Shown: positions 3,725 through 24,200, counted from the stretch's first letter. The stretch is DNA of 64,000 nt from a virus (IMGVR_UViG_3300030118_004979:4400-68399), one strand, 5' to 3'. The notes: a model not told the origin generated them from the letters alone. Translations and numbers: made by a program.

Positions 3725-5095
3725 TTACCATTTTATTTCTATTGCAGCGCTAACAAAAGCTTTACCACCAGCACTAACAGCACTACTATCACCTTTTACC
3801 ATAATCATTATGTGACTGCCAGCTGCCACTGTTGTATTATTTATATCCCCCACAGCCACTGCTACTGTTTTTACTTTATTATTATTTGTTGATGAAGCTA
3901 CAACTACTTCTTCAAATATTGTTCTAGGATGATCATTTGTATCTGCCGCTAATTCAGAAGGAACATATTCTACAATAGCTACTGTAATATTACCACTACC
4001 AGCATTACATGTAACTTGCATATTAATAGCATTTAAATTACAAGCAACAGGAACGTGAAAACCAGCAGATCTAAATAGTTTAGATTGTGTAACCTCTGTG
4101 CTACTACTGATTGTTGCACTACCATAATCTAAAGCAATTTCAAACGGAGACTTTGTATCTTCAACATCTTCTGTAAATTGATAATTTGTAGTTAACGTAC
4201 AAAAACCTTTTAAATTTACAAACTGAGCGTATATACCAGATGATGTTGATGGTGTGTTAACAGTTAAATTACCTGCTATTAGAGCGTTCTGCGAAGTGTC
4301 TAAAGTTAATGCTGTTGTGTTATTGGTAAATAAAGCAACTTCACCATCACTTTGTACAGAACCTATATAAAAACCATCACCTCCCCCACCTCCAGTAGGA
4401 TCAGAAGTTCTAATCATATAATCTGTAACACCACTATTATTTACAAAATTAATTTGCTGGTCATCATCATCAGTAGTGTCTTTTAATATTAACTTTGGAC
4501 CTCCAGTTTCAATATTAATTGCATTTTCAAAAGTTGCACCTGCATTGAAAAGAGCCTTACCTTGTTCAGACATATCAAGAGTTAAAGCAGTAATATCTGT
4601 AGCAACACTTGATTGTGTGTCTGTTCCTTTAAATATAATATTTTTATCAGTAGCACCATTATCTATAGTTAAATGACCAGTTGAATTTGTTATAAAACTA
4701 TCACTAGCATCATGATGTATTTGTAAATCACTACCACTACCAAATTTAGCTTTTACATTATCAGTAAAATGCATATCCTTACTAACTGTAATATTTACTT
4801 CGCTTCCATTTATTTTAAAATATTCTTCATTAGACTCTAAATCACTTGTAGTTTGAAACACAACACTACCTCCAGCTTCTGTATTATTTATAACAATATT
4901 TGTTCCATCAAAAGAATAACCTGTTAATGCAAGTTCTGCAGTAATATCTGTAATAGGTCTTTGAACTAACGTCCCATTAGTTTTTATAATTAACATATTA
5001 TCATCACTTGATAACCCAGAGGATACTTCTTTAAATATTACTGTATTATCAAATATAGTTTTAAATCTATTAATATGTTTACCTAAAAACTTCAT
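3725..5095 (-). CDS. tail fibre / receptor-binding protein
   Basis: KFGSGSDLQIHHDASDSFI repeat typical of marine phage fibres; TALTLD repeats; Thr/Ser/Gly/Asn-rich; C-terminal beta-sandwich. Confidence 0.7.
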   Translation of the reverse strand: MKFLGKHINRFKTIFDNTVIFKEVSSGLSSDDNMLIIKTNGTLVQRPITDITAELALTGYSFDGTNIVINNTEAGGSVVFQTTSDLESNEEYFKINGSEVNITVSKDMHFTDNVKAKFGSGSDLQIHHDASDSFITNSTGHLTIDNGATDKNIIFKGTDTQSSVATDITALTLDMSEQGKALFNAGATFENAINIETGGPKLILKDTTDDDDQQINFVNNSGVTDYMIRTSDPTGGGGGDGFYIGSVQSDGEVALFTNNTTALTLDTSQNALIAGNLTVNTPSTSSGIYAQFVNLKGFCTLTTNYQFTEDVEDTKSPFEIALDYGSATISSSTEVTQSKLFRSAGFHVPVACNLNAINMQVTCNAGSGNITVAIVEYVPSELAADTNDHPRTIFEEVVVASSTNNNKVKTVAVAVGDINNTTVAAGSHIMIMVKGDSSAVSAGGKAFVSAAIEIKW

Positions 5096-5556
5096 TAGGC
5101 AATATCAACATATTCTATAAAAACTTTTTCTTTTTGTAATGCTTTAGCAATATCTGGATATATTCTTTTATACGCGTTAGTGGATTTGCCAATAAACCCA
5201 TCTTTGATGATAACATTATTCTCCTGCGAATCACCAACAAGAAGACACCCAGCAGTATGTTCATCAGTATTACCAGTATGAATGAGAATGTACTCAAAAT
5301 TTGGTACACCAATAACATGTAACATTCCTTTATGGAATGAAAACCTTTTTTTATATTTTTCATGGAAGCCTCCTTCTTTTCGGAGTTTTATTTGATAAGT
5401 TCCTTGTGGCACTCTAGTTTCACCACGAACCTTATTATCTCTATGTTCATCTTCTAATGTATAACATAGAAAATCTAATTTATTATTTTTTTCTAAAAAA
5501 AGTAAGCCAGAAGTACTATCCTCCTGGCTACTAATTCTTAATACCTTAAGTTTCAT
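5095..5556 (-). CDS. DUF5675 protein, putative endolysin (L,D-transpeptidase-like His/Cys catalytic pair)
   Basis: CYTLED..GETRVPQGTY..ILIHTGNTDEHTAGCLLVG; lies near the holin. Confidence 0.75.
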   Translation of the reverse strand: MKLKVLRISSQEDSTSGLLFLEKNNKLDFLCYTLEDEHRDNKVRGETRVPQGTYQIKLRKEGGFHEKYKKRFSFHKGMLHVIGVPNFEYILIHTGNTDEHTAGCLLVGDSQENNVIIKDGFIGKSTNAYKRIYPDIAKALQKEKVFIEYVDIA

Positions 5557-6414: not shown

Positions 6415-6678
6415 ACAAATTTTTACCATTTTATCTTTTTCTTTATGTGATTTTATTCTAGCACATTTTTCGTATTCTTCGCTATCAATATAATAATTTA
6501 TTAAATCATCATATATTTTATTTGGTATTCTTTTTTTTGGATTAAAAGGTAAACTACACCCATTGTATTCAAATAACTCTAAAAAAGTCATTTGTCTTGT
6601 TACAATTAAATATGCATTTCGCATTGATTCATGATATAATTGTTCTTCATCTGTGTACATCCTATTAAGGATTTTCAT
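6412..6678 (-). CDS. hypothetical protein with C-terminal UVR-like motif
   Basis: YYIDSEEYEKCARIK resembles the UvrB/UvrC coiled-coil motif. Confidence 0.55.
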   Translation of the reverse strand: MKILNRMYTDEEQLYHESMRNAYLIVTRQMTFLELFEYNGCSLPFNPKKRIPNKIYDDLINYYIDSEEYEKCARIKSHKEKDKMVKIC

Positions 6679-7067
6679 TTTTTAACTTTTTCTAGAGATC
6701 TACCACCAAAATACGCACCTATTACTGTAATTAAAACTAATTGTAATAAATCCACATACGAATCTTTTACCTCAAAACTTATAAAACCAGCATCAATAAA
6801 TACAAGTAGCACTGTGCTAATTACTAAAAATACTAATACTAATGGTCTTATGTTTTTACTTAACCATGAGTCAGAGTTCATATCAAGTTTCCATCTTTCA
6901 GTAACTTGTTTTTGCATTTCAGCTTCATAACCCATAATTAAATCTTTTATCTTTCTTTCTGCTTCTAGCTTTTCTTCTTTTGTAGTTGTAAGATTATCTA
7001 ATACACCACCTACATTTTTAACTAATTCACCAGCTCCTGCTGAAAATATTTTACCTAATACACTCAT
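6675..7067 (-). CDS. holin (GTA-type 3TM holin family)
   Basis: RWKLDMNSDSWLSKNIRPLVL, two hydrophobic helices, GAYFGGRSLEK. Confidence 0.8.
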   Translation of the reverse strand: MSVLGKIFSAGAGELVKNVGGVLDNLTTTKEEKLEAERKIKDLIMGYEAEMQKQVTERWKLDMNSDSWLSKNIRPLVLVFLVISTVLLVFIDAGFISFEVKDSYVDLLQLVLITVIGAYFGGRSLEKVKK

Positions 7068-7273
7068 GATTTTTTTCTTATATATTCTAATATAATATCT
7101 ATTTTCTTTTTTATTTCTTCCATATTAACAGCATTTTTTTCATGATGTTTTGAAAATGTATTCTTAACTTCATGTATGCTAAAAAAGAAAAATCTATATA
7201 AAGCATATAATGCTCCTAGTAATAATACTAAAGGTAATCCGTATCCTTCTATTAATTCTAAGATCTCAGCCAT
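7064..7273 (-). CDS. small membrane protein (lysis-associated?)
   Basis: N-terminal TM helix (YGLPLVLLLGALYALY) plus coiled coil; overlaps the holin start. Confidence 0.6.
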   Translation of the reverse strand: MAEILELIEGYGLPLVLLLGALYALYRFFFFSIHEVKNTFSKHHEKNAVNMEEIKKKIDIILEYIRKKS

Positions 7274-7275
7274 AA

Positions 7276-7527
7276 TTAATAACCTCCACCACCTCCACTT
7301 GTAGATCCACCAGATGTTATATTAGTTGTACCACCTAATGGACCAAATTGTATATTACTTTGTCTACTACCTGTAGCTGTACTATGAGATGAACCACCCA
7401 TATAACCAACTACTCCACGTACAACGTGTGTATGATATCCTGTTAATCCATTAGCTCTAGCGTAATTTAAAGCCTCTTGTATTGTAGAATATACAGGCAC
7501 ACCTCCTATTGTTCCTAATACTGCCAT
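7276..7527 (-). CDS. small protein with GYHTH...YMGG..H putative metal-binding motif
   Basis: HxH...H pattern; Gly/Ser-rich tail. Confidence 0.55.
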   Translation of the reverse strand: MAVLGTIGGVPVYSTIQEALNYARANGLTGYHTHVVRGVVGYMGGSSHSTATGSRQSNIQFGPLGGTTNITSGGSTSGGGGGY

Positions 7528-7859
7528 TAATCTAATTGTCTAAATAATGTTTCTGGTAATCTACCACCACTAGCACATTTCCATCTTCTTCTAGCTTGTC
7601 TAATTCTAGAGTTTGGATTATTCCTAGTTTTAGCACTACTTCTTTTCAATTGACCTAAACTTCTAGCACAATATGACTTTCTACGTTTAGCAGCTTTGCT
7701 ACCTGGTTTTACTTTACCAGTAACAGCTGTTTTAAGTTTACTTCCAGGATTAGCTTTTCTAAATAGAGCTACTCCCTTACGAGTCATACCAGCGCCAGAC
7801 TTTGTCTTACGATAGTTACCACCTTTGCCAATAGTACGTCTTATTTGCTTTTGAGGCAT
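7527..7859 (-). CDS. small basic protein (RRKSYCARS type) ending in RQLD
   Basis: Lys/Arg-rich; TAATG coupling on both sides. Confidence 0.75.
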   Translation of the reverse strand: MPQKQIRRTIGKGGNYRKTKSGAGMTRKGVALFRKANPGSKLKTAVTGKVKPGSKAAKRRKSYCARSLGQLKRSSAKTRNNPNSRIRQARRRWKCASGGRLPETLFRQLD

Positions 7860-8212
7860 TAATCTAATTGTCTATATGATGCTCCATACTTTTCTCCTTT
7901 TGCCTTCATGCCATGGCCTGCCTTTTTCATTTTCATTCCATACATAGCTTTTGGCATCTTCATACCCATTTCAGCTTTTTGCATAGACATTCCATTTAAC
8001 ATTTTACCACCACCAGCATAGTTCATCATATCTCTTTTCATTTTCATTCCGCCTGGTGCTTTTTTCATTTTACCACCATACATCATGAAGCCCATATTAT
8101 TTCTGACGTCTTTAGGTAATTTAGCTAAACCTGGATTCTTTACAGAATCAACTGGCTTAAGTTTACCACCCTTTTTGTACATCATCTTTTTTTTCTTTTT
8201 AGCGTGTTTCAT
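7859..8212 (-). CDS. Lys/Met/Gly-rich basic protein with KAxxGMKM repeats, ending in RQLD
   Basis: YKKGGK, MYGGK, YAGGGK, KAEMGMKM, KAMYGMKM, KAGHGMK. Confidence 0.7.
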   Translation of the reverse strand: MKHAKKKKKMMYKKGGKLKPVDSVKNPGLAKLPKDVRNNMGFMMYGGKMKKAPGGMKMKRDMMNYAGGGKMLNGMSMQKAEMGMKMPKAMYGMKMKKAGHGMKAKGEKYGASYRQLD

Positions 8213-8223
8213 TTTATATAATA

Positions 8224-8481
8224 TTAATCAAGTTGTCTTAAAAATTTTCCTCCACTCTTGTACCTACTCACTCTTCCTTTTTTCTTTTTTTCCCTTGCAG
8301 CTCTTCTTTTCTCTCCAGGTGTTAATTCACTCCATGTTTTAGGAGTATCCTTAGAAATACGCTTAGTAGGTCTAAATGTATTTTCACCTTTACTATAATC
8401 TTTTTCACCAGAAGGCGTTCTCCAATCTTCTTTAAACCAACGTTTTAATCTTAATCCAGCTTTTGTTTTTCTAACAGCCAT
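8224..8481 (-). CDS. DUF5872-like basic protein ending in RQLD (start reassigned to MAVRKTK at 8481)
   Basis: LKRWFKEDWRT...FRPTKRISKDTPKTWSEL motif; ATG directly follows the upstream stop. Confidence 0.7.
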   Translation of the reverse strand: MAVRKTKAGLRLKRWFKEDWRTPSGEKDYSKGENTFRPTKRISKDTPKTWSELTPGEKRRAAREKKKKGRVSRYKSGGKFLRQLD

Positions 8482-8482
8482 A

Positions 8483-8701
8483 TTAATCGTGTTGGAATAT
8501 TCCTTTACCGCATTTATCAGATGATGATAAAAATCTACCACCTGATTTATACTTCATTCCTTTTGATCCTTTCTTTTTACTTTTATTTCCCCAATTAGCA
8601 GCACCTACTTTTCTGCACTTAGCCATAGCACCACTTCTGTATGCTGATGTCTTAGGTCCATATCTAGCTACTACTTTATGATAACAAGCGTCTTTAGGCA
8701 T
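8483..8701 (-). CDS. small basic protein (DACYHKV...SAYRSGA type) ending in FQHD; start reassigned to 8701
   Basis: MPKDACYHKVVARYGPKTSAYRSGAMAKCRK; start overlaps the upstream stop. Confidence 0.7.
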   Translation of the reverse strand: MPKDACYHKVVARYGPKTSAYRSGAMAKCRKVGAANWGNKSKKKGSKGMKYKSGGRFLSSSDKCGKGIFQHD

Positions 8702-8987
8702 TTTTTCTAGTTTTTCTGATCGCTTCTTTACCTCTTCTAAATATAGAAGCAACCTGTGTTTTCTTCATTACTTTTGCCCTTTGTTCCCCAACAGTTAATA
8801 TTTGTATTTTTCTAGCAAACGGTTTACTAATCTTTTTTACCTTTGCTACAGTAGCTCTAGCATCTGCAGGTGTAGCAAATTTAATTCTAACAGTATCTTT
8901 TGGATTTTCATCTGTGTACAGTCTACGTCCAGTATTCTTAGGTTTTTTACCTGTTCCTTTTTTAGGATCTCTAACTTTTCTTGGCAC
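8694..8987 (-). CDS. small basic protein (GRRLYTDENPKDTV type); probable GTG start at 8987
   Basis: Lys/Arg-rich; the GTG overlaps the end of the 8971-9138 ORF. Confidence 0.65.
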   Translation of the reverse strand: MPRKVRDPKKGTGKKPKNTGRRLYTDENPKDTVRIKFATPADARATVAKVKKISKPFARKIQILTVGEQRAKVMKKTQVASIFRRGKEAIRKTRKNA

Positions 8988-9138
8988 TTCTATGAACTTT
9001 TTGTACATCAAAACTAGCGCTTAAACTAGCTCCTCTATGTGCTTTAAACTTACCAGTATGTTTCATTAGCTTATAAGTATTATTACCTTTTTTCATCCAA
9101 TGAAAACCTGCTGGTGCTTTTACTGTTTTTCTAGCCAT
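8971..9138 (-). CDS. small basic protein (55 aa, not in ORF track)
   Basis: MARKTVKAPAGFHWMKKGNNTYKLMKHTGKFKAHRGASLSASFDVQKVHRSAKKS; fills the gap exactly. Confidence 0.65.
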   Translation of the reverse strand: MARKTVKAPAGFHWMKKGNNTYKLMKHTGKFKAHRGASLSASFDVQKVHRSAKKS

Positions 9139-11473
9139 CGTTTTTAACTATCAATTTATTTATTACTTTATTGCCATATAAAATTATAATATTATACAAC
9201 CCATTATCAAAACTTGATAAATCTAATTGTACAACATCTTCAGCTTCTAAAAGCATTTTACCTTCTATATTATACAATATTATACTTACAAAGTTACTAA
9301 AATAAATTTTTTCACTTGTTGGATTAGGATATATATTAATTTCCATATCTCTTAAATTAAATTCTAAACCCTGTGGATATCCTTCTTCACAATAATTATA
9401 TGTAAGCTGACATATAGTATCCCATGCATTTTCACAACAATAATCATCTACATCTATAACCCAAGCATAACACGGATCATTTAACCAATAAGGACTGCCC
9501 GCACCAGTGATACAACCAGCACTATAAAGGCAGTTAAGACTGTCATTAACATTAGCTTCACTGTTGTAGTTATGTGCTGATTGGTCCATACATCCTTGTA
9601 CAATAGCCTCACATGAACCATTGTCAGTATTAGCTGTTGAATCATAATTAAAGGCAGTACTATCAGTGCAACCATAGATGTAAGGTATACAACTGAAATC
9701 TTCTGTATTTGCTTGTGGGTTGAAGTTGAGCATGCTAGGATCAGTGCAACCAAAGATAAAAGGCACGCAAGTATTATTATCTGCATTTGCTAAAGGATTA
9801 TAGTTAAACATTGTGCTATCTGTACATCCATAGACATAAGGCTCACAAGAACCATTGTCTGTGTTTGCTAGTGGATTGTAATTATACATGACAGGATCAG
9901 TACATCCATATATATAAGGTATACAAGTGTCTGGTGCAGTAGCAAGAGAATTATAATTATACATCAAAGGGTCCATACAACCATATACATATGGTATACA
10001 ACCTCCATTATCTACGTTAGCTAAAGAATTATAATTAGACATAGTGTCATCCATACACCCAAAAATAGCTAAAGTATTGCAACTGTCTTGTACATTAATA
10101 TCTGTATAGTATCCATTTGAAGTATCTACATGATATTCTAAATATGCTGGTGATATACATCCTGGATTATAGTAACATGTTGTTGATATGTTTGCGCTAT
10201 CTACATAATTATAAGCCAAACTATCTACACAACCATATACTTTTTCTATGCAATTATTACCACAATATGTTAAGCCTTCGTATAATTTAAATGGAACTAC
10301 AAAAGGTGGTCTAACACTAATAGCGGTATCACCTTCAGGACCAATTAAAGTAAAGCCACATTCTAATGCTGTATTTTGTGCTTGTTGACTTACAAATAGT
10401 TTTGCACTAACCTCTTCTATAGCATATAAATCTATAGTAAAATATTGATTAAAACCACTATTCATATAAAAAACTGATGTATCATCTTCTTGGTATATTT
10501 CTAAACGTGTACCAACCCAACCATTGCCCACTAAATCATGTAAAATTAAATCATACGTACATACATCTATATTCTCCATAGTATTAGCTAGACTATCATA
10601 ATTAAACATAGTGCTATCAATACATCCATAAATTTTTAAAACAGAACAACTACTATCATCAATAGTAGCTAATGGATTATACTCTACATAATCATCATCC
10701 ATACAACCTGGTACAGGCGGTGGCGGTAAACAAGTGTCAGATATAAAAATATGTGTGGTATCACTTCCAAAGTTTGGATCTGATCCATATATTATAGTGT
10801 CTCCACATTGCATTATATAATAAGAGCCGTCTTGACCACCCCAGTTGCTACCAGCTAAACCGTCTCCATAATCATCATATATAGTAAAACTAAATTCACC
10901 AACAGGTATACATACTGGTATAAATTGTGGTTGGTAATTAGGCGCATTTACATAAGGGCCATTTGCAAAAATTATATTTCCTAAACTATCCTTTATATCC
11001 CAACTGGTTTCATCACCAAACTGATCTAAATTTATATTAATTAATGTAGGCACACAATTAACATAAGATGGAGGAGGTGGTGGTTGAGGCAAACATTGTG
11101 GCACTGTTCTAGTAGAATACAAACCACTTTGAAATGTTACAGTAGGTTTATTTATTATTGTATCACCGCAAACAGATAAAAAATAACTACCATCCATACC
11201 ATCACCAAAAGTATCTCTAATCAAAAAAACAACAGTATTAATAGGTCCGTTTATAAAAAGAGTGTCTACGTAATTATGATAAGGTAATGTTAAATCACCT
11301 GGACTTATATAACCTATAGTATCACCATATAAACTATCTGCAAATAAACACCATGATGTTTCTGTAGGATATTGATCAGTTGTTAAACTTAACACTGCAG
11401 GTTTTTGTCCACAACATTTTTTTGTTGTAAAACAACTCTGTAAAATAAGTAGTATAAAAATAAATTTTTTCAT
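9131..11473 (-). CDS. secreted Cys-rich repeat protein with T9SS (Por) C-terminal sorting domain
   Basis: Signal peptide; two or three beta-sandwich units (ETSW..DxYGDG); ~11 GC(T/M)D..NY..AN.D..C repeats; C-terminus INIYPNPT..YNIEGK..LDLSSFDNGLYNI..KLIVKN. Confidence 0.8.
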   Translation of the reverse strand: MKKFIFILLILQSCFTTKKCCGQKPAVLSLTTDQYPTETSWCLFADSLYGDTIGYISPGDLTLPYHNYVDTLFINGPINTVVFLIRDTFGDGMDGSYFLSVCGDTIINKPTVTFQSGLYSTRTVPQCLPQPPPPPSYVNCVPTLININLDQFGDETSWDIKDSLGNIIFANGPYVNAPNYQPQFIPVCIPVGEFSFTIYDDYGDGLAGSNWGGQDGSYYIMQCGDTIIYGSDPNFGSDTTHIFISDTCLPPPPVPGCMDDDYVEYNPLATIDDSSCSVLKIYGCIDSTMFNYDSLANTMENIDVCTYDLILHDLVGNGWVGTRLEIYQEDDTSVFYMNSGFNQYFTIDLYAIEEVSAKLFVSQQAQNTALECGFTLIGPEGDTAISVRPPFVVPFKLYEGLTYCGNNCIEKVYGCVDSLAYNYVDSANISTTCYYNPGCISPAYLEYHVDTSNGYYTDINVQDSCNTLAIFGCMDDTMSNYNSLANVDNGGCIPYVYGCMDPLMYNYNSLATAPDTCIPYIYGCTDPVMYNYNPLANTDNGSCEPYVYGCTDSTMFNYNPLANADNNTCVPFIFGCTDPSMLNFNPQANTEDFSCIPYIYGCTDSTAFNYDSTANTDNGSCEAIVQGCMDQSAHNYNSEANVNDSLNCLYSAGCITGAGSPYWLNDPCYAWVIDVDDYCCENAWDTICQLTYNYCEEGYPQGLEFNLRDMEINIYPNPTSEKIYFSNFVSIILYNIEGKMLLEAEDVVQLDLSSFDNGLYNIIILYGNKVINKLIVKNDG
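9530..10712 (-). repeat. coding repeats of about 25-26 aa (GCxDxxxxNYxxxANxDxxxC)
   Basis: Seven near-tandem units at ~9530-10070, plus four upstream units partly separated by a spacer domain. Confidence 0.8.
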
Positions 11474-11811
11474 TAAAAATCTTCCATTAATAGTTCATCA
11501 ATTATATTTTGTATTTCTTTTTTTGTTGCCATTAATTTAAAACTTAAATCAGCCTGAAAACGTTTTACCTCTTCACCATCTTTAATTAATAAAATTGTTG
11601 GCACTACTGCTATTTTATATTTCTTTTGACAATCACCCTTACTAATATCCATGACTTCATGTTTAACATCATTAAGTTTATCAAACCATTTTACTTCATT
11701 AGCAGAGTTCCATGTGGCATTAAAATAAATCGCTGTGATCTGAGAAAAACAACATTCTGTATATACCGTACAAAAAAATAACGCTAATAATAATTTCAAA
11801 CATTTTTTCAT
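11473..11811 (-). CDS. exported thioredoxin-fold protein lacking CxxC (WNSAN)
   Basis: Signal peptide ending FS|Q; YFNATWNSAN aligns with FxATWCxxC; YKIAVVPTILLIKDGEEVKRF carries the cis-Pro loop. Confidence 0.7.
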   Translation of the reverse strand: MKKCLKLLLALFFCTVYTECCFSQITAIYFNATWNSANEVKWFDKLNDVKHEVMDISKGDCQKKYKIAVVPTILLIKDGEEVKRFQADLSFKLMATKKEIQNIIDELLMEDF

Positions 11812-12089
11812 CTTAGTTTATCTATTTTATCTTCCATTCTAATCATTCTTTCTTCAAGTTTTTTTACATTAGCTTCTGTATTTATTATTGACTGTCTTAT
11901 CATTTGATCTTTCATGTCAAACTCCATACGAGTTACCTCTGGTTCTGCCACAGGTAGTTCTTTAGCTTCAGCAATATCTGCTTGTAAAGTAAACCACATT
12001 CCTATTAAGGCTGATAAACCTGCACCTATTGCTATTAAAGTTTTTACACTAACTTTAAAACTTGTATCTTCATTTAATTCTTTAGCCAT
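11808..12089 (-). CDS. single-pass membrane protein with C-terminal coiled coil
   Basis: TM segment LIAIGAGLSALIGMWFTL, then heptads VKKLEERMIRMEDKIDKL. Confidence 0.65.
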   Translation of the reverse strand: MAKELNEDTSFKVSVKTLIAIGAGLSALIGMWFTLQADIAEAKELPVAEPEVTRMEFDMKDQMIRQSIINTEANVKKLEERMIRMEDKIDKLR

Positions 12090-12259
12090 TATATTTCTAT
12101 TCCAAAGTTAAACAACATTAATCTAAATCTTGAACATGTACCTCCAACACATGCACAATAGTGAATGTAGAATAAAGTCATTGTTCCTAACCTAAGTTCT
12201 ATTCTATATACTTCTTTTTTATTATTAGCTTTATAGCCATTTATCCAATTTACTTTCAT
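12089..12259 (-). CDS. small hypothetical protein (56 aa, not in ORF track)
   Basis: MKVNWINGYKANNKKEVYRIELRLGTMTLFYIHYCACVGGTCSRFRLMLFNFGIEI; TAATG coupling at both ends. Confidence 0.65.
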   Translation of the reverse strand: MKVNWINGYKANNKKEVYRIELRLGTMTLFYIHYCACVGGTCSRFRLMLFNFGIEI

Positions 12260-13287
12260 TATAATAATATATAATTTATACCAACTTTAAAATCATACCA
12301 CTCTCTATTCCAATACTTATTGTATTTACCCTCTGCAAACAAACCTAAATTTTTATTGTACTTATAACCAAATATCATACCGCCTGAATAATCTGTCCAT
12401 TGCCCATCTATATATTCATGATAGCTATATTCATTATTCATATTATAATGATATGGTAAAATATTTGCCCATGCATGCAACCAATACATTTTCGTGTAAT
12501 AGTAATAATCAAAACCTAATACCAATGAGTGATTCCATTTAGCAGATAATTCATTTCTCTTTTTCTCTACATAATCTCTTAATACAGTAGGTATAATTAC
12601 TTCTTTCCAAACATCAGAGGATGTTGCTACTATATTACCATCAGGATCTTTATATTCATTATTAAATACATCTATATTATAACCCTCTTGTATAGCTAAA
12701 TATGTATAATGAATATCTCCATTATCCAAAACCCATTCTTCTAAAGGATCATAACCATAAGGCTCTGCTATACGCTGTACAGCACCTATGTTGAAAGATA
12801 AATTATTATTATATTTATGTCTATATCTTTGAGATGCTTCGTAGTATTTTATGTCTGCAAAACCATCTTGTAAATATTCTATTTTAGTTAACCAGCTATT
12901 ATCAACATATCTAATAAAATAATGCTGATCTAAATAGTCATCTCCTTCTTGTCTTTTTTTATTAAACTCAAATAAAAATTCTAGCCCGCTAACTTTACCT
13001 AAAGTAGCAGCGTCTGACCATGATGTCTCAGTTCCATCGTAAAATGTTTGTGCTTTATTTTCATATCCAAACCTAGCTATTTTTCTAATACCTAAGCTTA
13101 AATTGTAATCAAAAGGAGTTTTTACAGTATTTGTTTGTAATCCATTCTGAATAGAATAAACATCTACATCTGATATAGAAGTTCCACCGTTAGCGGCAAC
13201 ATAAAATGTAGAAAATTTTAAATATTTATTTATTTGGGCATTAGTGCTAAGACTAAATAATAGTAATATGTATATAAACTTATTCAT
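12259..13287 (-). CDS. putative outer-membrane beta-barrel protein
   Basis: Signal peptide STNA|Q; Tyr/Trp-rich amphipathic strands; C-terminal strand YDFKVGINYILL. Confidence 0.65.
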   Translation of the reverse strand: MNKFIYILLLFSLSTNAQINKYLKFSTFYVAANGGTSISDVDVYSIQNGLQTNTVKTPFDYNLSLGIRKIARFGYENKAQTFYDGTETSWSDAATLGKVSGLEFLFEFNKKRQEGDDYLDQHYFIRYVDNSWLTKIEYLQDGFADIKYYEASQRYRHKYNNNLSFNIGAVQRIAEPYGYDPLEEWVLDNGDIHYTYLAIQEGYNIDVFNNEYKDPDGNIVATSSDVWKEVIIPTVLRDYVEKKRNELSAKWNHSLVLGFDYYYYTKMYWLHAWANILPYHYNMNNEYSYHEYIDGQWTDYSGGMIFGYKYNKNLGLFAEGKYNKYWNREWYDFKVGINYILL

Positions 13288-15289: not shown

Positions 15290-18200
15290 TTATTCTTTTT
15301 CTAGAGACGTCACCTCACCAACATACTTAACTGCTTTTTTAGCAGTGCCTATACTAGAAGGTATAATAGTATAATTAACAAAACGTCCACTATCTGTTGT
15401 AACAAATATATCTTTTTCAAGTTTTTTAAGATACTTTAATGTTACTGTATCTGGCTCATCCTCATCATCTAGCATTGATATTAAAGCTATAATAACTGTT
15501 GCTATACCCAAGCCTCTTAAATGTGCTTTTATTTCTTCTTGTTTAGCAGGAGATAAAGATTTAAACTCATCATAAAATTGATTCATAGAAATTTCCCCTC
15601 TAAAGTATCTTCTAACAAACTGAGCTGCAAATCTAGTTGAAGCTTGATAGCTACCTATGTTTACTTCACCAAATCTATTTATTTCTTCACCACCAAATCT
15701 GTCATTAATTAATGTAATAAACCATTTTTTAAATTGTAAAATAGCTCTACCAAAAGAATACATAGATAATAAACTTGCATCTAAAGCTGTATATCCTTCA
15801 CCATGTAATGTAGCTATTTTATTATTAATATATCTAACCCTTTGTTCATCTATAATACCAGTGTTATATTCAGCATCTGTTAAAAAACCCAAGAAACTAG
15901 CCCCTTGTATATAGTGTTCTGTTTTATCCATAAAAATAAATGAAGCCTTTTCTATTTTACCCCATAAACCTTTTCTTTCAGATAAATGAACAAAATCATC
16001 AAAACTATGCTGAACTACTCTATATCTTTTTAATATATCTAACGCCTTGCCACGATCTTTAAAATATCTAATTTCACCTTTTACAAACTGACTTCCACCT
16101 CTTTTTCTTAACTCTTGATATTTACCTGCTAATAAATTACCAGCACCAATAGAAATATCAAAGCCTAATAATCTAAGAGAAGTAAGTTTGACAAAACCAT
16201 CTATTACTTTATCTCCTGTCTTACCTACAAAACTTTGTTGTTTACCTCTTCCTAAAAATCCTTCTTTCCACCAACCTGTTAAATATTTTACTGCATTAAC
16301 ATTATCTAAATTTTTATTGAATGCTATTGCCGCATCTGTTAGTATAGATAAATTATTCATACCACCAAATCTTTGTAAATCAGCTTCAGTGCCATCATAC
16401 TTTTTATCACCATTACTAAATAAAGATCCACGAACAAATTCTAATAAAGCTGTATTAATATCTAAAGTAGTTAGTTCAGACTTTATGCCTTTTCTTCTTT
16501 CATACTCCTGTATAATTTCTAAATCTAAATCTGTAGTGCCTTCTGGTTTTTCATCCATAAATCTTTTTAAAATAGCACCATGATTTATCAAAGTATCATA
16601 TTCTACATCTGATAATTGTATTAAACTACCATCTTCGTTTCTTCCTATTTTTTTAAACTTCTTAGCTTTTCTTCTTAGTTTTTCTAACTCATTTATTTTT
16701 CTACCAGTAGTTAAACTAATAGCTACTGTCCTGCCTTTATAAACTTCATTTTTCCACTCATAAAAAGTTTTTAATTTTTCTTTACCATCTAAATCTATAC
16801 CCTTTACTTTTACTCTATCATAATCAGAAGAATTAATAATCATATTATATAATCCAAACAAACCACTTTTATCATATGATTCTAATACACCCATTTGCAT
16901 ACCAGGCACATATGTTTCTAAAGACTTCATACCACTATCTCTTTGAGCGTCAAACATAATTTTAGTAATTGCTCTATATTCTAAATAATAATCTCTTTCT
17001 TCTTTTGTTAAATTATTTCTTTTTGTAGCATATTCTTGTTTAGATAATAATCTTATTTTACCATCTTCTTCTACTATAATATTTCCATATATCATTCTAT
17101 ATTTTTCGGATGGTCGTAGTGATGCTGACAGCCTTTCTAACACTGTTAGTCCCTTATTTTTAGATTTAACTAATGCATCATTTTTTTCTTTTATTCTTTT
17201 TCTATAAACATTAAAACGATTTATATAGTTTGTATATTCTATTTCTGCTTGATTAATTAATTCTTGTAGCTCTGGTCTATCACTAGTCATATTATTTGCA
17301 CCTAACCAAGTTCTAAAATTAGATATATCTTTTTGTTGCGCACCATCTTCTCCTGGTATTACATATTTAAAGTTTTGTTTTTTTGCAGACTCTTGTAAAA
17401 ACTTACTTTGTTTTTCAAACATTTTTTGTCCTATAGATTTTTCTATTAAATATGACATACCTTTTGTAGCTGTATTATCCATTTTTCTAAACTGATTAGC
17501 TAGATCTACTAAGTCTTTAATAGTATACGAACTTAAAGGTTTTCTTGATAAAGTGTTTTCAAACTTTTTTACTATATTAAAATCATTAAGATATGTAGAA
17601 TATCTAGTTTTAAGTATTTGATACGTTCTTGATTTTTTATCAATTACTTCACTTCTTATACCTTTATCAGCTAGCCACTGATTAAAAGTAAACTCTTTGT
17701 CCATATCGCCTAAATAATCTTTATTGAATGATGTGTTAGGGCCTACATATTTTTTTGCCTTTCTTTTTGGTCCTTTAAAAGCATCTTCTTCTATAACTAT
17801 AAATCTATCGTTTTCTGAACTCTTTTGTATTTCTTCTAATACTGAATATTTATCTTTTGGATTAACCACCATTTGTTCAGCCAACTCTAACTCTACTGTG
17901 CTACCTTCATCATACTCTCTATTTTGATCTTCTTGAATAATTCTTTCTATTTCGTTATTAATACTTTCCATATATTTTTGATCAAAGAAAGGTGTAAATG
18001 ATATAGCTTTCGGATAACCTGTAAATCCAAATTCATTAAACTCTGCTTCTAATTCAAAAATTAAATTCTTTTCTTGATCACTAAGTTTAGCAAAACTTTT
18101 TCTTATATCGTTAATAGTTTTATATGATGTAAGTTCATTAATCTCTACTGTATTGTATGTTAATGTTTTAGTGCCATCTTTCTTTTCTACAATTTCTAAT

Positions 18201-21200
18201 ATTCTATTTAAGAATAAATTATCAGGTTTTAATTGTTGTAAATCTTCTAGCTCTTGAATTAATGTTTTAGGATCTCTAGCGCCATATAATAATGTCATAC
18301 GTTTTTTTAAATTATTAACGATGACTTGATTTATTATTCTTGATTTTAAATGCGCTCTTTTATTATCATTTAGAAACTGTACTGCAGATTCAGTTGTTAA
18401 TAAACTCTGCATATATGGAGTATATCTTATATCTGTTACGCTTGCTCTATTTAAAAAACTATCAAACAAATTCATAGCATGACTTACTATAGGATTACTT
18501 TTACTATCTCCTAATGTATATGGTATATTTAATCCAACTTTTGTTTTTCTTGTTTTAATGTTTACAGTCTCTGGATTTATTATAATTTCATTATTAATTA
18601 TTTCTTCTATTTGATCTCTTATAATTTTTAACTCTAATGGATTTTTTTCTATACTTTGATGCACCGTAAATGCTTTACCAAAAGGTCTAACTACATCATT
18701 ATTAAACTGCTGTAAACCATACAACATTAATACAACATCTATGTTAGCAGATCTATCATTATTTAATAAATCTTGTATATTTATATTAACACCATCTTTT
18801 AGTCTATTAGATAGTTTTGTCCAGTTTGTTTTGCTAGATAAGTTTTTACCTAATTTTTCATTTTGCAAAAAAGTTATTAAAGAATTAAATGACATATCAT
18901 ATTCTTTACCAAACATTTTTTCTATATCACTGTTTCTTGAAACATAACTTTTGCTTTGACCTTTTTTAAAAGCCATGTATTTTTTTACAATAGGGCTATT
19001 AAATATTAAAGATATATCTTCAAGACTATACCCTAATCTTCTAAGTGTTACATATGGAAATATACTTTGGTAGTTTAATCCAAGTTTTTCTGCATATTGA
19101 TATTTAGCATTATCTAATACTATATTTAATAACTGTGCCACACCATACCAATTACCTGTATTGTTTTCTAATGTAGTATCATCAAAAAATTGAGTAACTT
19201 CTCTAGTCTCTCCTTGTAAGTTTGTAAATGATATATTAAAAGGTAGTTGTTCATTGTTATTAGAAAATACATTATATACTCTTTGTAACGCCGCAACAAT
19301 ACCTACTAGACGTTTAGAAGGAACATTCTCTTCAAACATTTTAGCATCACCCTGTGGTAATAATTGTGTAGGTATATCAATTTTTGATAGCTCTGTATTT
19401 TTTTCTACACTTTCAATAGATTTTTTAGACACTTCGTCAAAGTCTATATTAGATTGTAATTCATTTTTCTTTTCTGCTTTACTTACTAGTTGTATATACT
19501 TATCAAAAAAATCATTAGTCTTTAATCTCCAGCTTTTATTTTTAACTTTAGTTTCAATATCTGTCCATTTAAAATTCATATGCACAGAATCTCCATCTAA
19601 ATCTGCACCCCAATATGAACTTACTTTTGCAGGTATAGATATATTAGAAGATGGAGTGTTAGCCAATCTATCGTGAAACTCTTTAACAATAAATACAGCG
19701 CTACTTACTTTACCATGTGCTGGTATTCTTGTGCCTATAAATATATCTCCTATATTTACTCCTTGAGCTTTAAGATATTCAGGAACCCATGCTTCTGATA
19801 CAATTATATTTGGATTCTCTTCTCTTAAATCTAATATAGCAGATTCAAAATCACTTTTATTCTGTTCATTAGTAAACTTATCTGCGATAAAATTACCATT
19901 ATCATCAAAGTAATCATCAGGAGTTTTGTAAGATTGTAATCCTAAGCCTAAACTAGAACTTTGATATGCTATAGATCCTTTAGTATACATTTTAGTACCC
20001 TTGTGCGCTATACGCCCACCAGCTATAGAATTGTATATAGAATTTAAATATGGATATCTAGGATCAGTAAAACCAAACATAGAGTCTACTAGTATACCAA
20101 AAACCTCTGGACTCATTGAAGTTTTGAATGAATCTCTTTCTTTTATCACATCATCTTGTGTTGCACCCTCATCTTTAATTAAAGCTTTATTTCTTTCTAT
20201 ATTATTAGCTTCCATTACTTCTTTTCTAAGCTGTAGCATTTCATTTACTAAGGCTTGTTCATCAACACCTATATTAGTAACTAAATGATAGAATAACTGT
20301 GACGGAAAAAATCTTTCGTTAGATTGTTTATCTAATTCTAATTGTATACCTAATCCTTCACCTGATAATGGTGTATATCCATCTTGCATATATAATTCAT
20401 TCTGTAATCTATTTATTGTATCTATATCTTCATTTACATCATAAACATACTTAGATCCTTGTGGTCCAGAAACACCATCTTTAAATACTTTAGTAGAAGA
20501 CTCTGAAACGGCCATAACTAAATTACCATGTTTAAATATATTATCTCCTTTAAAATCTTCTATGGTATTTTCAGATATCATTCTATGTCTTTCTCTTAAA
20601 ACATCTGCAATTTTTTTCAACTCAGGACTTGCTTGTTCCATTTTAGGTGTTAATGGATGCACAGCATATTTTAAATATACTGTTTCTCCAGATTTTATAT
20701 CTGTATGATAATATACAAATTTTAAAACACTACCTACTTTTTGTATATCTCCATACTTGGAGGCTACAGCCTCTATTTGTTCTGGCAACATATAACCCAT
20801 AGCATCATTTTCTATATAGTTATTTTCTTCTTCAGTGGTTATATTTAAATTATCATCTACATATAAGTCTTTAAATATTACAGGCTCTACTCCAACATTT
20901 TTATCAAACTCTGTATGACTTGCAATAGCACCCGCAGCTCTTTTTATATAATCTGTCTCGCTTTGTGATTGTCTATGATCATGTATAAAAACTTGTTGAG
21001 CCATAAACTTATTAGCTAGATATGATGTTAAGAATGCATCATAGGCTTCTCTTTTATTTTTTATTGCATTGTATTGCGTGTTACCTTCATATAGTTCTAG
21101 ATTATTTTTAATATAATCGCTAAATTGTTTTACTAATTCAGGCATTTCTTTAATAGATAAATTACCATCTTTTTCTACAATTGTGTACGGAAATATATCT

Positions 21201-24200
21201 TGACCTTTTGTATATTTAGCATTTATAGCAGGATTATTTTTAAGTTTAGTTAATATAATATTTTTCATATTAGTATTATGAGCAGCAAAACTTTGTACAT
21301 AATACCTTCTGCTTTTATCTGAAAATACAGCTATAGGCTGACTATATGTAAAACCTTCTGTGTTTTTCTTTTGATTATATATTCCTATAAAATTAAAAAA
21401 ATCACTAGCAGTTAATTCTGTTGAAGTTAAAGCATTTAATGTTAATGACATATCTTCAAATTCTACACCTTCTTTGGATGATATAAAATATCTCATTAAT
21501 CCAGAGTTTATTTCTATACCAAATGGGTTTTGTAATATATTACCCTCTTCATTTAATAATAAACCTTTTTGTAATTTATTACGTAATATTTCTGTATATA
21601 TATTATTTTCTGGACTTAGTATATTAGATGAATCAAAATTATAGTCTTTACTAACTAACTCGGCTAATCTCATAGATTTATTATGTAAGCTATTTTGTTT
21701 GTTAAATATACTTACGCCTTGTTTTTCTACATTATCAACAATTGATAAAAAGTTTTTTGATCTTGACAATACAAGCCCTTGTGTTAATATTTGTCTTATT
21801 TCTTTTTGCCCTTTAAGATCTTTACCAACTTGATATTTAAAAAATCCAGTAGGTTTAAATTTATCTGTAGTTGGTTCAAATTCATTTTTACCTTTATATA
21901 CAACCCATGTTTTATCATTATCAAGCTTTATAGTTTTTCTTCTTGAGCCAGACTTTGTTGTAAAACCTATTTCTTTAAAATTAAAAAATATGTCTTCTAA
22001 ATATTGTTGCTTATCATCAAATAGTATAGGGTTGTTAAGTAAGGCCTGTTTATCAATTAATAATCCTTTTGGGCTATCGTCTAATAAAACACCTAATATT
22101 TCTTCTGCCGCTTCTCTTCTTGCAACTTTATCCTTAGGATCTACTTTAAATAAATTTGTATATATCTTTGCAATCTTATCATGCTTGCTTGTTCTGTCCT
22201 TTTGTAATATGTCTAATATAGATTTTAAAGCATTATCTTCTACAGAACTACTAGTAGCTGTATATTTTTTCCAAGTTCTTTTACCTTCTTTATCTATAAT
22301 TAAAGTATTGTTCATTAAAGTTTCTATCTGTAACCCATCTAATGGTGATTTTAATTCAATAATTTTTGCATTAGTTACATCAGAATTTTGATAAACACTA
22401 TCTAAAACAGTTAACATAGATTTTATTTCATGATTAGTGCTTTTTCTTAATAGCATTACAAAATCAAAAGGTTCATTCTTAGTAGATTTAGAAATAGTTA
22501 AAAGCTCATGCAATAAATTTTTTCTATCCATTGGTATTGCAGGATTTTTATAGTTGAATAATGCTACTATTTTTCTAGTAAATGCAGATAGTGTAGTGGG
22601 TAAAGCAATATCTTTTTCTTCTCTAGCATTTAAATCATTTTGATTTTCTGAATCTTCTGAAACATCTTCTATAGTTTCTGTACTTAAACCTATTTGGTTA
22701 ATAGCTTTATCTAATCTTTGATCTGCAATTTTAAGTTGATTTCTTTTTGTTGTTTGAATTACTATAGCCCTTACATAATCTCTAATTTTAAATAATTCAT
22801 CATCAGACAATCTATGATCTTTTTTCAAATCATTCATTACATTTCTTACTATTTCATCTTCAGTTAAGTTTCTGCCTATATAGTCACCTATTGATGCATG
22901 AACAACTGAATATCCAGAAACTTTTTTTAGTCTTGAATTAGAAGCTTTTTTCATAGACGCCCTAGCTGGATTGCTTACTGTAGGTATTGTATTTCTATCT
23001 GAACCAAAATCTAATAAAACATGTTTAATAGCAGCCTCTAAATCTAGATCTCCTATATTGTCAACAGAAAGATTTAATAGCTCTAGCGCTTCCTTTTCTG
23101 TTGTAAGATTTTTTATGTCTTTATAAAATTCAATTAAATCTTGTCTTAACTGTTCTTGTGCTTTTGTACCTTCTATCACTGTTTGTGATGTACCATAAGA
23201 ATATGCTTCTAAAGCTCTAGTAAAGGATTCTTCTATTAAAGGTTCTTGTAAATCTATTCTAACTTCTTTATGACCTAATGATTTAAGTTGTGTTCGTAGT
23301 TCTGTAAACAACTCATTCATTCTGTTATTATCATTTTTTCTTTCTGCTCTAGCTAAATTGTTTACAATATCTGTAAGTACATTACTATCCAAAACTTTAT
23401 TGGAAGATTTTTCTTGACTATAAAATTCACCAACTGTAATTTTTTGCCCATTAATATTCATTAATGTAAGCTCAGGATAAAGTAATTTAGTTGTTTTGAA
23501 TATACCTGACTTATATATAACTTTTCTAATACGCTTCATTAAAGGCGTATCTTTCATTAATCCATAATAAACATGACCAGCTTCGTGAATTATATCACTT
23601 TGTCTAGCGCCATCTATGTTTACAATTACACTACTTCCTAGAGCAAAAGCCACTGATCTTTGACCATACGAATCTATTAGTTGTTGTGATGTTAGATATC
23701 CTTTATATCCAGGAAACTTTTTATCAATAATACTTTTAACTAAATTGTATTCATATAAGTTAGTTCTATGAAAGTTTCTTGTAAAGTTTTCATCAATGTT
23801 AGGCTCTTCTGTAGGTAATGCTGTAGATGGTTTGAAAGAATCATATATTTTTTTTGTTCTTTCTTTTATTTCATCAATTACTTTTTTAGTTATATTTTTT
23901 GGATCAGATTTTTTAGCTCTTTTTTTAAGAGTTTGTTTAAAATCCCTTTGAGCAACCTTACCTACTTGTTCACCATTTATCTTTACAATTATTTCAGATT
24001 CGTATAATTGATCACCAAACTGATAAAACAAATCACCATCTATATCTACTACATTATCTTGTCCAACCTGTGGTTTACGAACCTCTAGTTCTATATTGAC
24101 ATCTTCATCGCTTTGTACAAATTTATCTGATACACCTGCTTGATCTACATAAGATATGGTTTCATCATCTTTGACTATAGTATAATATACTAAACCTCTA

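Follow-up and report, generated by a model that had tools for sequence, protein, structure and literature searches.

The window analysed here, a 64,000-nucleotide stretch of a viral genome (IMGVR_UViG_3300030118_004979:4400-68399), carries four syntenic genes, g342, g93cc, g112 and g780, that are co-inherited among related phages and far better conserved than the virion core. The phage is crAss-like, as had been supposed, and its capsid protein matches PF23898 (E 2.6e-36). We hold with moderate confidence that the four genes form a conserved exported cassette with which a marine crAss-like phage changes the cell envelope of the Bacteroidota it infects.

Composition and conservation of the cassette

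Five ORFs lie on the minus strand of the region, at the positions given in a preliminary description of this DNA: g342 (12259..13287), g56 (12089..12259), g93cc (11808..12089), g112 (11473..11811) and g780 (9131..11473). Their stop and start codons overlap by 1, 4 or 8 nt, also as described, and the overlaps had been taken as the mark of a five-gene module. Given that 25 of the 47 minus-strand gene junctions genome-wide overlap (35/47 junctions are no longer than 10 nt), the overlaps do not mark the cassette as a unit. The small Cys-bearing protein g56 (56 aa) is a real conserved ORF with 33 distinct homologues, but a search of 161 related viral loci detected it in only 41, its position is variable and inspection of the sequence revealed no signal peptide or hydrophobic leader; it is probably a neighbour here and not a cassette member.

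What stands of the proposed module is four genes, whose synteny is above chance. Among the 161 loci g342 was found in 147, g780 and g93cc each in 142 and g112 in 139. The order g93cc-g112-g780 on one strand was present in 122 loci, and in these 122 loci the three genes were never separated or reordered; g93cc is always directly upstream of g112. All but four of the 122 loci also carry g342 (118 loci), upstream of the other three in 84 and downstream in 34, and loci in which g342 is only 31-33% identical still show the order g342-g93cc-g112. Co-occurrence in other phages, complete relatives included, was thus confirmed. The uniform GC content and the recurrence of this gene arrangement on well over 100 independent viral contigs exclude a chimeric host insert.

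Conservation was compared with two complete relatives, G005 and G007, and paired values below refer to these in that order. Identities were 69/62% for g342, 62/64% for g93cc, 55/60% for g112 and 47/46% for g780, as against 27/21% for the portal, 28/24% for the terminase and, for the capsid, 27% in G005 and none detected in G007. The capsid was 29-30% identical in three of five records and undetected in two, and g342 was present in all four complete records examined (the window's own, G005, G007 and G009). Given that the cassette was kept while the capsid genes diverged, it probably remodels the envelope of the infected cell, and the difference in conservation (46-69% for the cassette, 21-28% for the virion core) suggests that it does something important at the host envelope during the infection cycle.

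Predicted properties of the four proteins

The putative cargo protein g780 has 780 aa and 41 Cys. Inspection of its sequence identified a leader with a basic n-region and a hydrophobic core (mean Kyte-Doolittle 1.42 over 19 residues), at the end of which Gln23 is invariant in the g780 alignment, and the protein is predicted to carry an N-terminal Sec signal peptide. The model contains two related beta-sandwich domains at residues 24-245 (10739..11404, minus strand; AF2 blocks with pLDDT 80-91) and a third at residues 300-401. A predicted stalk of 26-aa two-Cys repeats (9530..10627, minus strand), nine of which were detected by regular expression, was modelled with low confidence and matched no Pfam family, and the protein also has an invariant Cys-rich knot. 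The N-terminal sandwiches gave weak fold matches to ferlin C2, CUB and galectin domains with whole-chain TM below 0.1; searches of Pfam, NCBIfam and PHROG assigned the passenger to no known family and an Atlas search was uninformative. The cargo family is abundant, with 2,926 relatives at E≤1e-3, and the 120 relatives listed had no informative name and were all on phage-sized contigs.

The preliminary description had proposed a type IX secretion system (T9SS) C-terminal domain (CTD) on this protein, and the searches support it; with such a domain Bacteroidota direct proteins to the cell surface. Residues 714-776 match PF18962 with 29.6 bits (curated cut-off 27), g780 matches TIGR04183 with 26.8 bits (curated cut-off 23), the tail scanned alone scored 34.8 bits and a six-frame search of the phage's 68,399-bp record returned the CTD (35.6 bits) as the sole match in the record. 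The corresponding model (residues 711-780, pLDDT 81-91) was matched by Foldseek to 8glk_D, the CTD of NucA as seen in the solved T9SS translocon complex of F. johnsoniae, with TM 0.81, rmsd 1.7 Å over 75 columns and probability 1.00. By these sequence and fold criteria the tail (residues 714-777; 9143..9334, minus strand) is a bona fide T9SS type A CTD. A recognisable CTD was found in only 33 of 103 homologous g780 tails; the other 70 are about 33 aa shorter and no library recognises them, and none of the 103 matches the type B model (NCBIfam, E≤0.05). The full seven-strand CTD sandwich is described as essential for secretion in a passage of PMC11285876. Because 70/103 tails are shortened and unrecognised, T9SS use may not be what unites the family. 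The MAG bins with related contigs disagree in taxonomy and the binning is unreliable; two Bacteroidota bins encode PorP/SprF.

For g112, the profile of the family retrieved 198 thioredoxin-type sequences from the PDB at E≤1 (best 2vim_A, E 3.8e-9), and the CGPC stretch of thioredoxin aligns to a gap in this profile. Scanned as one sequence, g112 stays under both the Pfam cut-off (18.8 vs 23.5 bits) and the TIGR cut-off. In the family of 56 sequences P71, the equivalent of the cis-Pro, is invariant, none of the Cys positions is fully or almost fully conserved, and the Gln at the end of the hydrophobic leader (Q24) is at least 90% conserved. The protein is therefore, as far as can be read from its sequence, an exported thioredoxin fold minus the redox cysteines, in line with the earlier suggestion of an exported thioredoxin without CxxC. 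Protein disulfide isomerase b/b' domains are redox-inactive thioredoxin folds, and g112 likewise keeps the cis-Pro without CxxC; it differs from them in being a stand-alone 88-aa phage protein with a predicted periplasmic location. Given that the cis-Pro is kept and the CxxC gone, its role is consistent with binding rather than catalysis.

The 93-aa g93cc, described earlier as membrane-anchored, has a single hydrophobic stretch at residues 17-35 (mean Kyte-Doolittle 1.82 in a 19-residue window), the one TM helix of this bitopic inner-membrane protein, followed by a linker rich in Pro and then by a charged helix at the C-terminus. This helix is predicted to be periplasmic because Lys precedes the TM segment and acidic residues follow it. 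The family alignment has 57% mean column identity; g93cc matches phrog_12220, a family of unknown function (E 2.1e-5), and no relative was found in the PDB.

The leader-bearing g342 models as a predicted outer-membrane barrel of 12 long antiparallel strands (AF2, pLDDT 75, pTM 0.70), as expected from its description as a signal-peptide beta-barrel candidate. A Foldseek search of the PDB placed the NanC porin first (E 1.4e-7), with autotransporter, FadL and porin barrels next, and the best 50 ranks were all outer-membrane barrels. The C-terminal residue is mostly F across the family; an insert of about 75 aa occupies residues 175-249 and a 30-aa turn (residues 70-100) is very conserved. No match was obtained in Pfam, NCBIfam or PHROG, and relatives of this orphan phage family are rare (413 of 1.84 billion representative proteins at E≤1e-3). 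Membership of the KdgM/NanC porins or of the autotransporter beta-domains was considered and rejected: the likeness is one of fold only (TM 0.38-0.59, 7-11% identity), with no PDB sequence match at E≤10 and no Pfam match.

Possible roles of the cassette

If the four genes serve to alter the host envelope, g342, g112 and g780 would cross the inner membrane by Sec, with leaders ending at the conserved Gln as in the Q-rule that passages of PMC5837995 and PMC10653852 describe for Bacteroidota SPase I substrates. The redox-dead thioredoxin g112 would keep the 41-Cys g780 secretion-competent in the periplasm, and g93cc possibly holds g112 near the membrane. The host T9SS would then recognise the CTD and move g780 across the outer membrane, where the disulfide-stapled stalk would hold the three N-terminal beta-sandwich domains off the surface. 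BAM would insert g342, which may be an outer-membrane partner or anchor, or an independent channel. As for the purpose, our best guess is surface remodelling late in infection, such as receptor masking, exclusion of other phages or adhesion.

It is unlikely, though deserving of weight, that there is no single machine and that the genes are independent exported accessories in a region where genes for the host envelope gather. They would then encode a porin-like barrel serving uptake or exclusion, an adhesin or binding protein that is secreted, and small periplasmic proteins. The genes could be inherited together because all of them need the same host envelope, with the barrel moving independently, and the shifting position of g342 (84 loci upstream, 34 downstream) fits this, as do the nearest folds of g342, which are monomeric substrate-specific porins such as NanC, the many kinds of phage-encoded barrels in viral metagenomes, and the small basic proteins and g56 that are interspersed among the cassette genes. 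The unbroken order of g93cc, g112 and g780 in 122 loci speaks against it, as does the persistence of all four genes across phages with core genes at 21-28% and of the four-gene set down to 31% g342 identity.

A role of the cassette in the lysis or egress of Bacteroidota phages is improbable on balance. Here g93cc would be i-spanin-like (N-in TM and periplasmic helix) and g342 its outer-membrane counterpart, the two breaching the outer membrane once the holin and endolysin have acted; g112 and g780 would help the progeny leave, perhaps by keeping them from readsorbing to debris. The holin (6675..7067, minus strand; phrog_3427, E 3.7e-30) has homologues that adjoin an annotated endolysin in Vibrio phage records, and the candidate endolysin (5095..5556, minus strand) is a DUF5675 protein (PF18925, E 2e-27), a type named as a C82-like peptidase lysin candidate in a portion of a preprint (10.64898/2026.04.11.717860). 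Both share the unusually high conservation of the cassette (holin 84/78% identical, DUF5675 protein 66% identical in G005). In all 38 module loci where a holin homologue was also seen, the distance to it, downstream and on the same strand, ranges from 3 to 6,229 nt and is 3-10 nt in three of the 38, and in G005 the order g93cc-g112-g780-g342-DUF5675-holin is contained within 9 kb. Moreover, no TM- or lipobox-bearing ORF fit for a canonical spanin adjoins the holin, and the TM helix and charge distribution of g93cc fit an i-spanin. Viewed from the holin the association is looser: 13 of the 19 holin loci that have 6 kb or more of upstream sequence lack any cassette gene within 10 kb, the cassette being elsewhere on the same contig in at least four of the 13, as shown by shared contig names and by G009, where about 34 kb separate g342 and the holin. 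At about 55 aa the periplasmic part of g93cc is short, no cassette protein matches a spanin family in Pfam, NCBIfam or PHROG, and no lipobox ORF or small lipoprotein gene of at least 40 aa overlaps or adjoins g93cc. We know of no precedent in membrane fusion by spanins for an adhesin-like 780-aa cargo and a beta-barrel.

A more specific proposal, equally doubtful, is that the phage comes equipped with a T9SS accessory kit, consisting of a barrel shuttle or anchor, a cargo and a private periplasmic chaperone line. In such a kit g342 would work like PorV or PorP/SprF, though unrelated to them, take over the phage cargo at the translocon of the host and fix it on the surface; the half-CTD tails of 70/103 cargo proteins may be completed by the barrel; and g112 with the membrane-tethered g93cc would be the chaperone line for the 41-Cys g780. 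If true, a virus would here for the first time extend a bacterial secretion system with both substrate and sorting components.

A virion role for g780 and its neighbours, as fibre or decoration, with the CTD-like domain a mere Ig-like binding module, has very little to recommend it: the cassette does have the lysis genes on one side and a giant 3,817-aa ORF with a Laminin_G_3 protein on the other, and the 26-aa Cys repeat does recur in large leaderless ORFs of related phages, but the virions of tailed phages are put together in the cytoplasm, N-terminal leaders with a conserved Gln junction are present on three of the four proteins, g342 is a predicted outer-membrane barrel ending in Phe, and no PHROG structural family was matched.

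Relation to known systems

An envelope-altering cassette of this kind would place a cargo of an abundant family, locked to three exported proteins of no known family, in phages of marine Bacteroidota, a group of major degraders of algal matter. Should the barrel be a viral shuttle, or the cassette the Bacteroidota answer to spanins, a gap in how these phages handle the outer membrane would be filled. The four genes are a defined unit that is testable with Flavobacterium johnsoniae genetics.

Some phages make outer-membrane or exclusion proteins, among them lambda Lom/Bor, T5 Llp and phi80/N15 Cor, that alter the surface or block receptors. They resemble the cassette in being phage-encoded and placed in the host outer membrane, but these proteins of Enterobacteria phages, either 8-stranded barrels or small lipoproteins, act alone, and the cassette has no sequence or fold relation to them in the families searched and by Foldseek.

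With T9SS type A cargo such as F. johnsoniae NucA, g780 shares the predicted Sec leader, a CTD of about 70 aa and its fold (TM 0.81); it differs in being phage-encoded, in a passenger of no known family and in the shortened unrecognised tail of two thirds of its homologues. The preliminary description knew of no characterised system of this kind. None was found in our literature searches either, but phage T9SS cargo had already been noted, in passing, in metagenomic papers: in the sections concerned, T9SS type A sorting domains are reported in genes of 'Cryophage' (PMC7468147) and of crAss-like BACON cluster 2 contigs (PMC6949934), and hijack of the host T9SS is presumed from bioinformatic observations only. 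The cargo described there consists of enzymes, PA14 or BACON proteins encoded by variable single genes, and going by these descriptions g780 is set apart as a Cys-repeat cargo of marine phages locked to three conserved exported partners. Phage T9SS cargo is thus in print, and according to the literature searches the accessory trio (g342, g93cc and g112) is not.

In the type B systems presented in parts of PMC12618676 and PMC9143113, where cargo is genetically linked to a PorP/SprF shuttle, the cargo gene likewise adjoins one that encodes an outer-membrane barrel of some 320-350 aa. The resemblance is not one of descent: alignment of the g342 family with seven PorP/SprF sequences gave an hhalign probability of 1.6%, neither g342 nor 10 distant relatives matched PF11751 at E≤0.1, and type B tails are absent among the 103 examined. 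The arrangement itself is similar, since g342 (342 aa) flanks the cargo block in 118 loci, and the pairing of cargo with PorP/SprF (ORFs of 323-345 aa in MAGs) was observed in the MAG loci L171, L174, L175 and L178.

Layout, spread and conservation of the cassette

On the minus strand, the five ORFs follow those for a 3,817-aa product and a Laminin_G_3 protein and encode the barrel g342 (12259-13287), the small Cys-bearing protein g56 (12089-12259), the single-helix protein g93cc (11808-12089), the thioredoxin-fold protein g112 (11473-11811) and the T9SS cargo g780 (9131-11473). The stop/start overlaps between them were exactly as given in the preliminary description. These overlaps were rejected as a marker of an operon-like unit since neighbouring genes commonly overlap throughout this genome, with 25 of 47 minus-strand junctions overlapping and 35 of 47 being at most 10 nt. 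The GC content was uniform across the cassette region, and a scan for sigma-70 promoters and terminators gave no excess over shuffled sequences (65 vs 72.6 and 3 vs 3.4, respectively).

Pattern scans of IMG/VR returned 397 g342 relatives and 105 g780 relatives. Eighty loci per scan and one from the phage's own record (161 loci, some contigs occurring in both sets) were searched using tblastn, and matches were obtained for g342 in 147 loci, for g780 and g93cc in 142 each and for g112 in 139. The last three genes were all present in 122 of the 161 loci, always in the order g93cc-g112-g780 and on one strand, which is the synteny across viral contigs that the preliminary description had proposed as a check. 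The barrel gene was found in 118 of these 122 loci, upstream of the trio in 84 and downstream of it in 34. The 39 of the 161 loci that lack the full trio were mostly cut by contig ends. The proposed module of five genes was thereby reduced to four that co-occur in related viral loci, as g56 had a match in 41/161 loci only. In 7 loci the best g780-like match was situated upstream of g342, and in the two of these that were inspected (L027 and L035) it was a different, leaderless Cys-repeat ORF in a locus that stops just past g112.

Contigs from MAG bins labelled Flavobacteriaceae kept the g342-g93cc-g112 order at only 31-33% g342 identity. The barrel was found on only 9 contigs in the MAG scan, from bins discordant in taxonomy (Parvibaculum, Nitrosopelagicus, Rickettsiales and others), and these were read as mis-binned phage contigs rather than as host genes. 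No cellular homologue was found.

All ORFs in the window were compared with two complete related phage records, G005 (89 kb) and G007 (71 kb). The only ORFs with more than 45% identity across most of their length were the holin (84% in G005 and 78% in G007), g342 (69% and 62%), g93cc (62% and 64%), g112 (55% and 60%), g780 (47% and 46%) and a DUF5675 protein (66% in G005, no match in G007). The corresponding values were 27% and none for the capsid, 27% and 21% for the portal and 28% and 24% for the terminase. Similarly, among five related records the capsid showed 29-30% identity in three and was undetected in two, and g342 identity in the same five was 62-71% where determined. This suggests that the envelope genes have either been exchanged among lineages sharing hosts or are under unusually strong constraint.

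The IMG/VR virus record of 68,399 bp, of which the window covers bases 4400-68399, was rated complete by CheckV. The capsid gene (44023-45564) matched PF23898, the major capsid family of Crassvirus, at E 2.6e-36 and showed 27-28.5% identity to capsids of gut crAss-like phages among the tblastn matches listed; all 62 capsid-matching records, including 29 Flavobacterium phage records, were below 60% identity. Given this distance from the gut capsids, the phage is judged from sequence to belong, as a remote marine member, to the crAss-like phages. In a phage collection of 50,697 records the 4.2-kb region had no megablast match, and g780, g342 and g93cc had no tblastn match.

The g780 cargo and its sorting tail

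The preliminary description held that the 780-aa protein carries a T9SS C-terminal domain (CTD), and this was upheld by both profile libraries: residues 714-776 matched PF18962 with 29.6 bits (curated cut-off 27) and the match to TIGR04183 reached 26.8 bits (curated cut-off 23). This was the sole match to a T9SS sorting domain in the entire record, and the same search gave none in 14 control genomes. The AlphaFold model, for which 53 homologues were used, was poor overall (pLDDT 63.5) and confident at four places, namely beta-sandwiches at 24-123, 140-245 and 300-401 and the CTD (pLDDT 81-91). With Foldseek, the CTD superposed on 8glk chain D, which is the CTD of NucA bound as a substrate in the T9SS complex of F. 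johnsoniae (TM 0.81, rmsd 1.7 Å over 75 columns, probability 1.00), and the N-terminal sandwiches gave only weak C2/CUB/galectin-like fold matches. An Atlas search with residues 22-250 gave scores of at most 0.80, which is chance level.

The protein contains 41 cysteines, and a regular-expression search found nine 26-aa repeats with two Cys each, in agreement with its earlier designation as a Cys-repeat protein; an invariant Cys-rich knot directly precedes the tail. The same 26-aa repeat recurs in 2-6 copies in related phages, in large leaderless ORFs of 426-1,927 aa (L035:3426-8009, L047:3389-8086, L078:113-5896 and L027:4776-6056), for which PHROGs gave no function. If these ORFs are virion fibres, a binding module would be common to the secreted protein and the virion.

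The g780 family had 2,926 members at E<=1e-3 in a collection of 5.8 billion proteins, and among the 120 matches listed all were unnamed or "hypothetical protein" and every contig was phage-sized. The C-terminal tails of 102 distinct homologues and of g780 itself were compared; 33 of these 103 tails matched PF18962 at E<=0.01, the same number matched TIGR04183, and none matched a type B CTD. The remaining 70 tails have a segment about 33 aa shorter that aligns to the last CTD strands, with a DLLGR-like motif retained as well as a KKxIK-like one at its end. Given that the full seven-strand sandwich is reported to be essential for secretion in P. gingivalis (PMC11285876), most members of the family would use another route or need a partner that completes the signal.

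With such short tails in most family members, a barrel linked to the cargo becomes interesting. Shuttle barrels of the PorP/SprF type are often encoded next to type B cargo in Bacteroidota genomes (PMC12618676). PorP/SprF barrels in MAGs are of the same size as g342, but they are not homologous to it, and membership of g342 in this group was rejected (hhalign probability 1.6%). At four MAG loci (L171, L174, L175 and L178), PorP/SprF-like genes adjoin ORFs with a typical type B CTD terminus, as in cargo-shuttle pairs.

The earlier statement that no characterised system of this kind is known holds for the full texts searched. In these we found no experimental characterisation, nor any account of a cargo tied to partners like g342 (barrel), g112 (inactive thioredoxin) and g93cc (bitopic helix protein). 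T9SS-tagged phage genes as such are already known from two bioinformatic mentions, in PMC6949934 (sorting domains in crAss-like BACON cluster 2 contigs) and PMC7468147.

Barrel, partner proteins and leaders

No family in Pfam, NCBIfam or PHROGs was found for g342. Its model has twelve long antiparallel strands and an inserted subdomain at 175-249 (pLDDT 75, pTM 0.70), and all PDB fold matches among those listed were outer-membrane barrels, the 12-stranded NanC porin ranking first (E 1.4e-7) and autotransporter barrels, FadL and porins after it, in support of the candidate beta-barrel of the preliminary description. The Atlas search returned only unnamed viral clusters and then autotransporter/OmpG barrels at 0.93-0.94. 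Only 413 relatives at E<=1e-3 turned up when 1.84 billion representative proteins were searched with a profile, and ten distant full-length relatives lacked any outer-membrane Pfam family. The C-terminal residue of the family is mostly Phe. From an even strand count and a periplasmic N-terminus we infer that the insert faces the outside of the cell; the turn at 70-100, which is extremely conserved and poorly modelled, would then be periplasmic. Among 93 distinct g780/g342 pairs, tail class had no clean association with barrel position, leader type or last residue. The barrel ended in Arg in 26 of 63 short-tail pairs vs 0 of 30 other pairs, a restriction that shared ancestry could explain.

The g112 family profile matched PDB thioredoxins, 2vim_A being the best (E 3.8e-9), and their CGPC stretch faces a gap; the family keeps the cis-Pro without exception and conserves no cysteine, as expected for the CxxC-less thioredoxin described earlier. 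A single hydrophobic helix (residues 17-35) is present in g93cc, with Lys before it and acidic residues after it, followed by a Pro-rich linker and a charged helix, and the only match was to phrog_12220, of unknown function. The leaderless g56 is conserved, with 33 distinct homologues. Complex prediction with mature g342, mature g112 and periplasmic g93cc gave ipSAE values of 0.00 and 0.00, which weighs neither for nor against binding. We regard the four-gene unit as real and abundant and the calls of T9SS cargo, outer-membrane barrel and thioredoxin fold as solid; mechanism and purpose of the cassette we infer.

The last leader residue is a Gln, which is invariant in g780 (Q23), conserved to at least 90% in g112 (Q24) and also present in g342 homologues among the rows displayed. 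This fits the Q-rule for signal peptidase I substrates of Bacteroidota (PMC5837995 and PMC10653852) and points independently to a Bacteroidota host. Some leaders carry the pattern C-x5-CC-x-Q, i.e. a lipobox-like Cys, CC five residues later (often as PKKCC), one or two residues and then Gln. It was seen in the family alignment of g342, at residues 12-23 of g780 and at residues 14-24 of g112, and occurred in 55/116 distinct g342, 5/106 g780 and 1/112 g112 homologues, the leaders of the other members being plain and ending in that Gln as well. The pattern may represent an unusual c-region of the signal peptide or else a Cys-rich tether that carries a lipid.

Lysis genes and other neighbouring ORFs

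Two likely lysis genes, as predicted from their family matches, are found on the minus strand, a holin (6675-7067; phrog_3427, E 3.7e-30), whose homologues adjoin annotated endolysins in Vibrio phage records, and a DUF5675 protein (5095-5556), a candidate C82-like endolysin in line with the proposal in a 2026 preprint that DUF5675 is a C82-like peptidase lysin (10.64898/2026.04.11.717860). Both are conserved far beyond capsid, portal and terminase in divergent relatives. Directly upstream of the holin, a 69-aa ORF (7064-7273) with one hydrophobic helix, a Lys-rich C-terminal helix and a weak, sub-threshold Pfam match is possibly an antiholin or second holin.

A lysis role for the cassette would agree with the position of the holin, which lay 3 to 6,229 nt downstream and in the same orientation in 38 of the 38 cassette loci where a holin was seen, and with the lack of a canonical spanin candidate beside the holin here. 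However, the linkage breaks when starting from the holin: only 6 of 19 loci with at least 6 kb upstream (a subset of the best 80 holin loci) show a cassette gene, and for at least 4 of the 13 without one, the contig carries the cassette at another place, as judged from contig names common to the scans and from the complete record G009, in which about 34 kb separate g342 from the holin. A lysis role was therefore kept as a rival and envelope remodelling as the main reading.

The 3,817-aa ORF (15290-26743, minus strand) carries an LDGD-type acidic motif (ADLDGDSVH, noted by reading the translation), which resembles the metal-binding DxDGD motif of crAss-like phage virion RNA polymerases. A run of very basic small ORFs (7527-8752, minus strand) has 23-33 Lys+Arg per 89-117 aa. 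Three consecutive ones (7527-7859, 7859-8212 and 8224-8541) share the C-terminal motif [FY]RQLD and a fourth (8483-8752) ends in FQHD; the shared C-terminus may mark internal or DNA-binding proteins for processing, packaging or targeting. Homologues of these basic ORFs adjoin the cassette in related loci.
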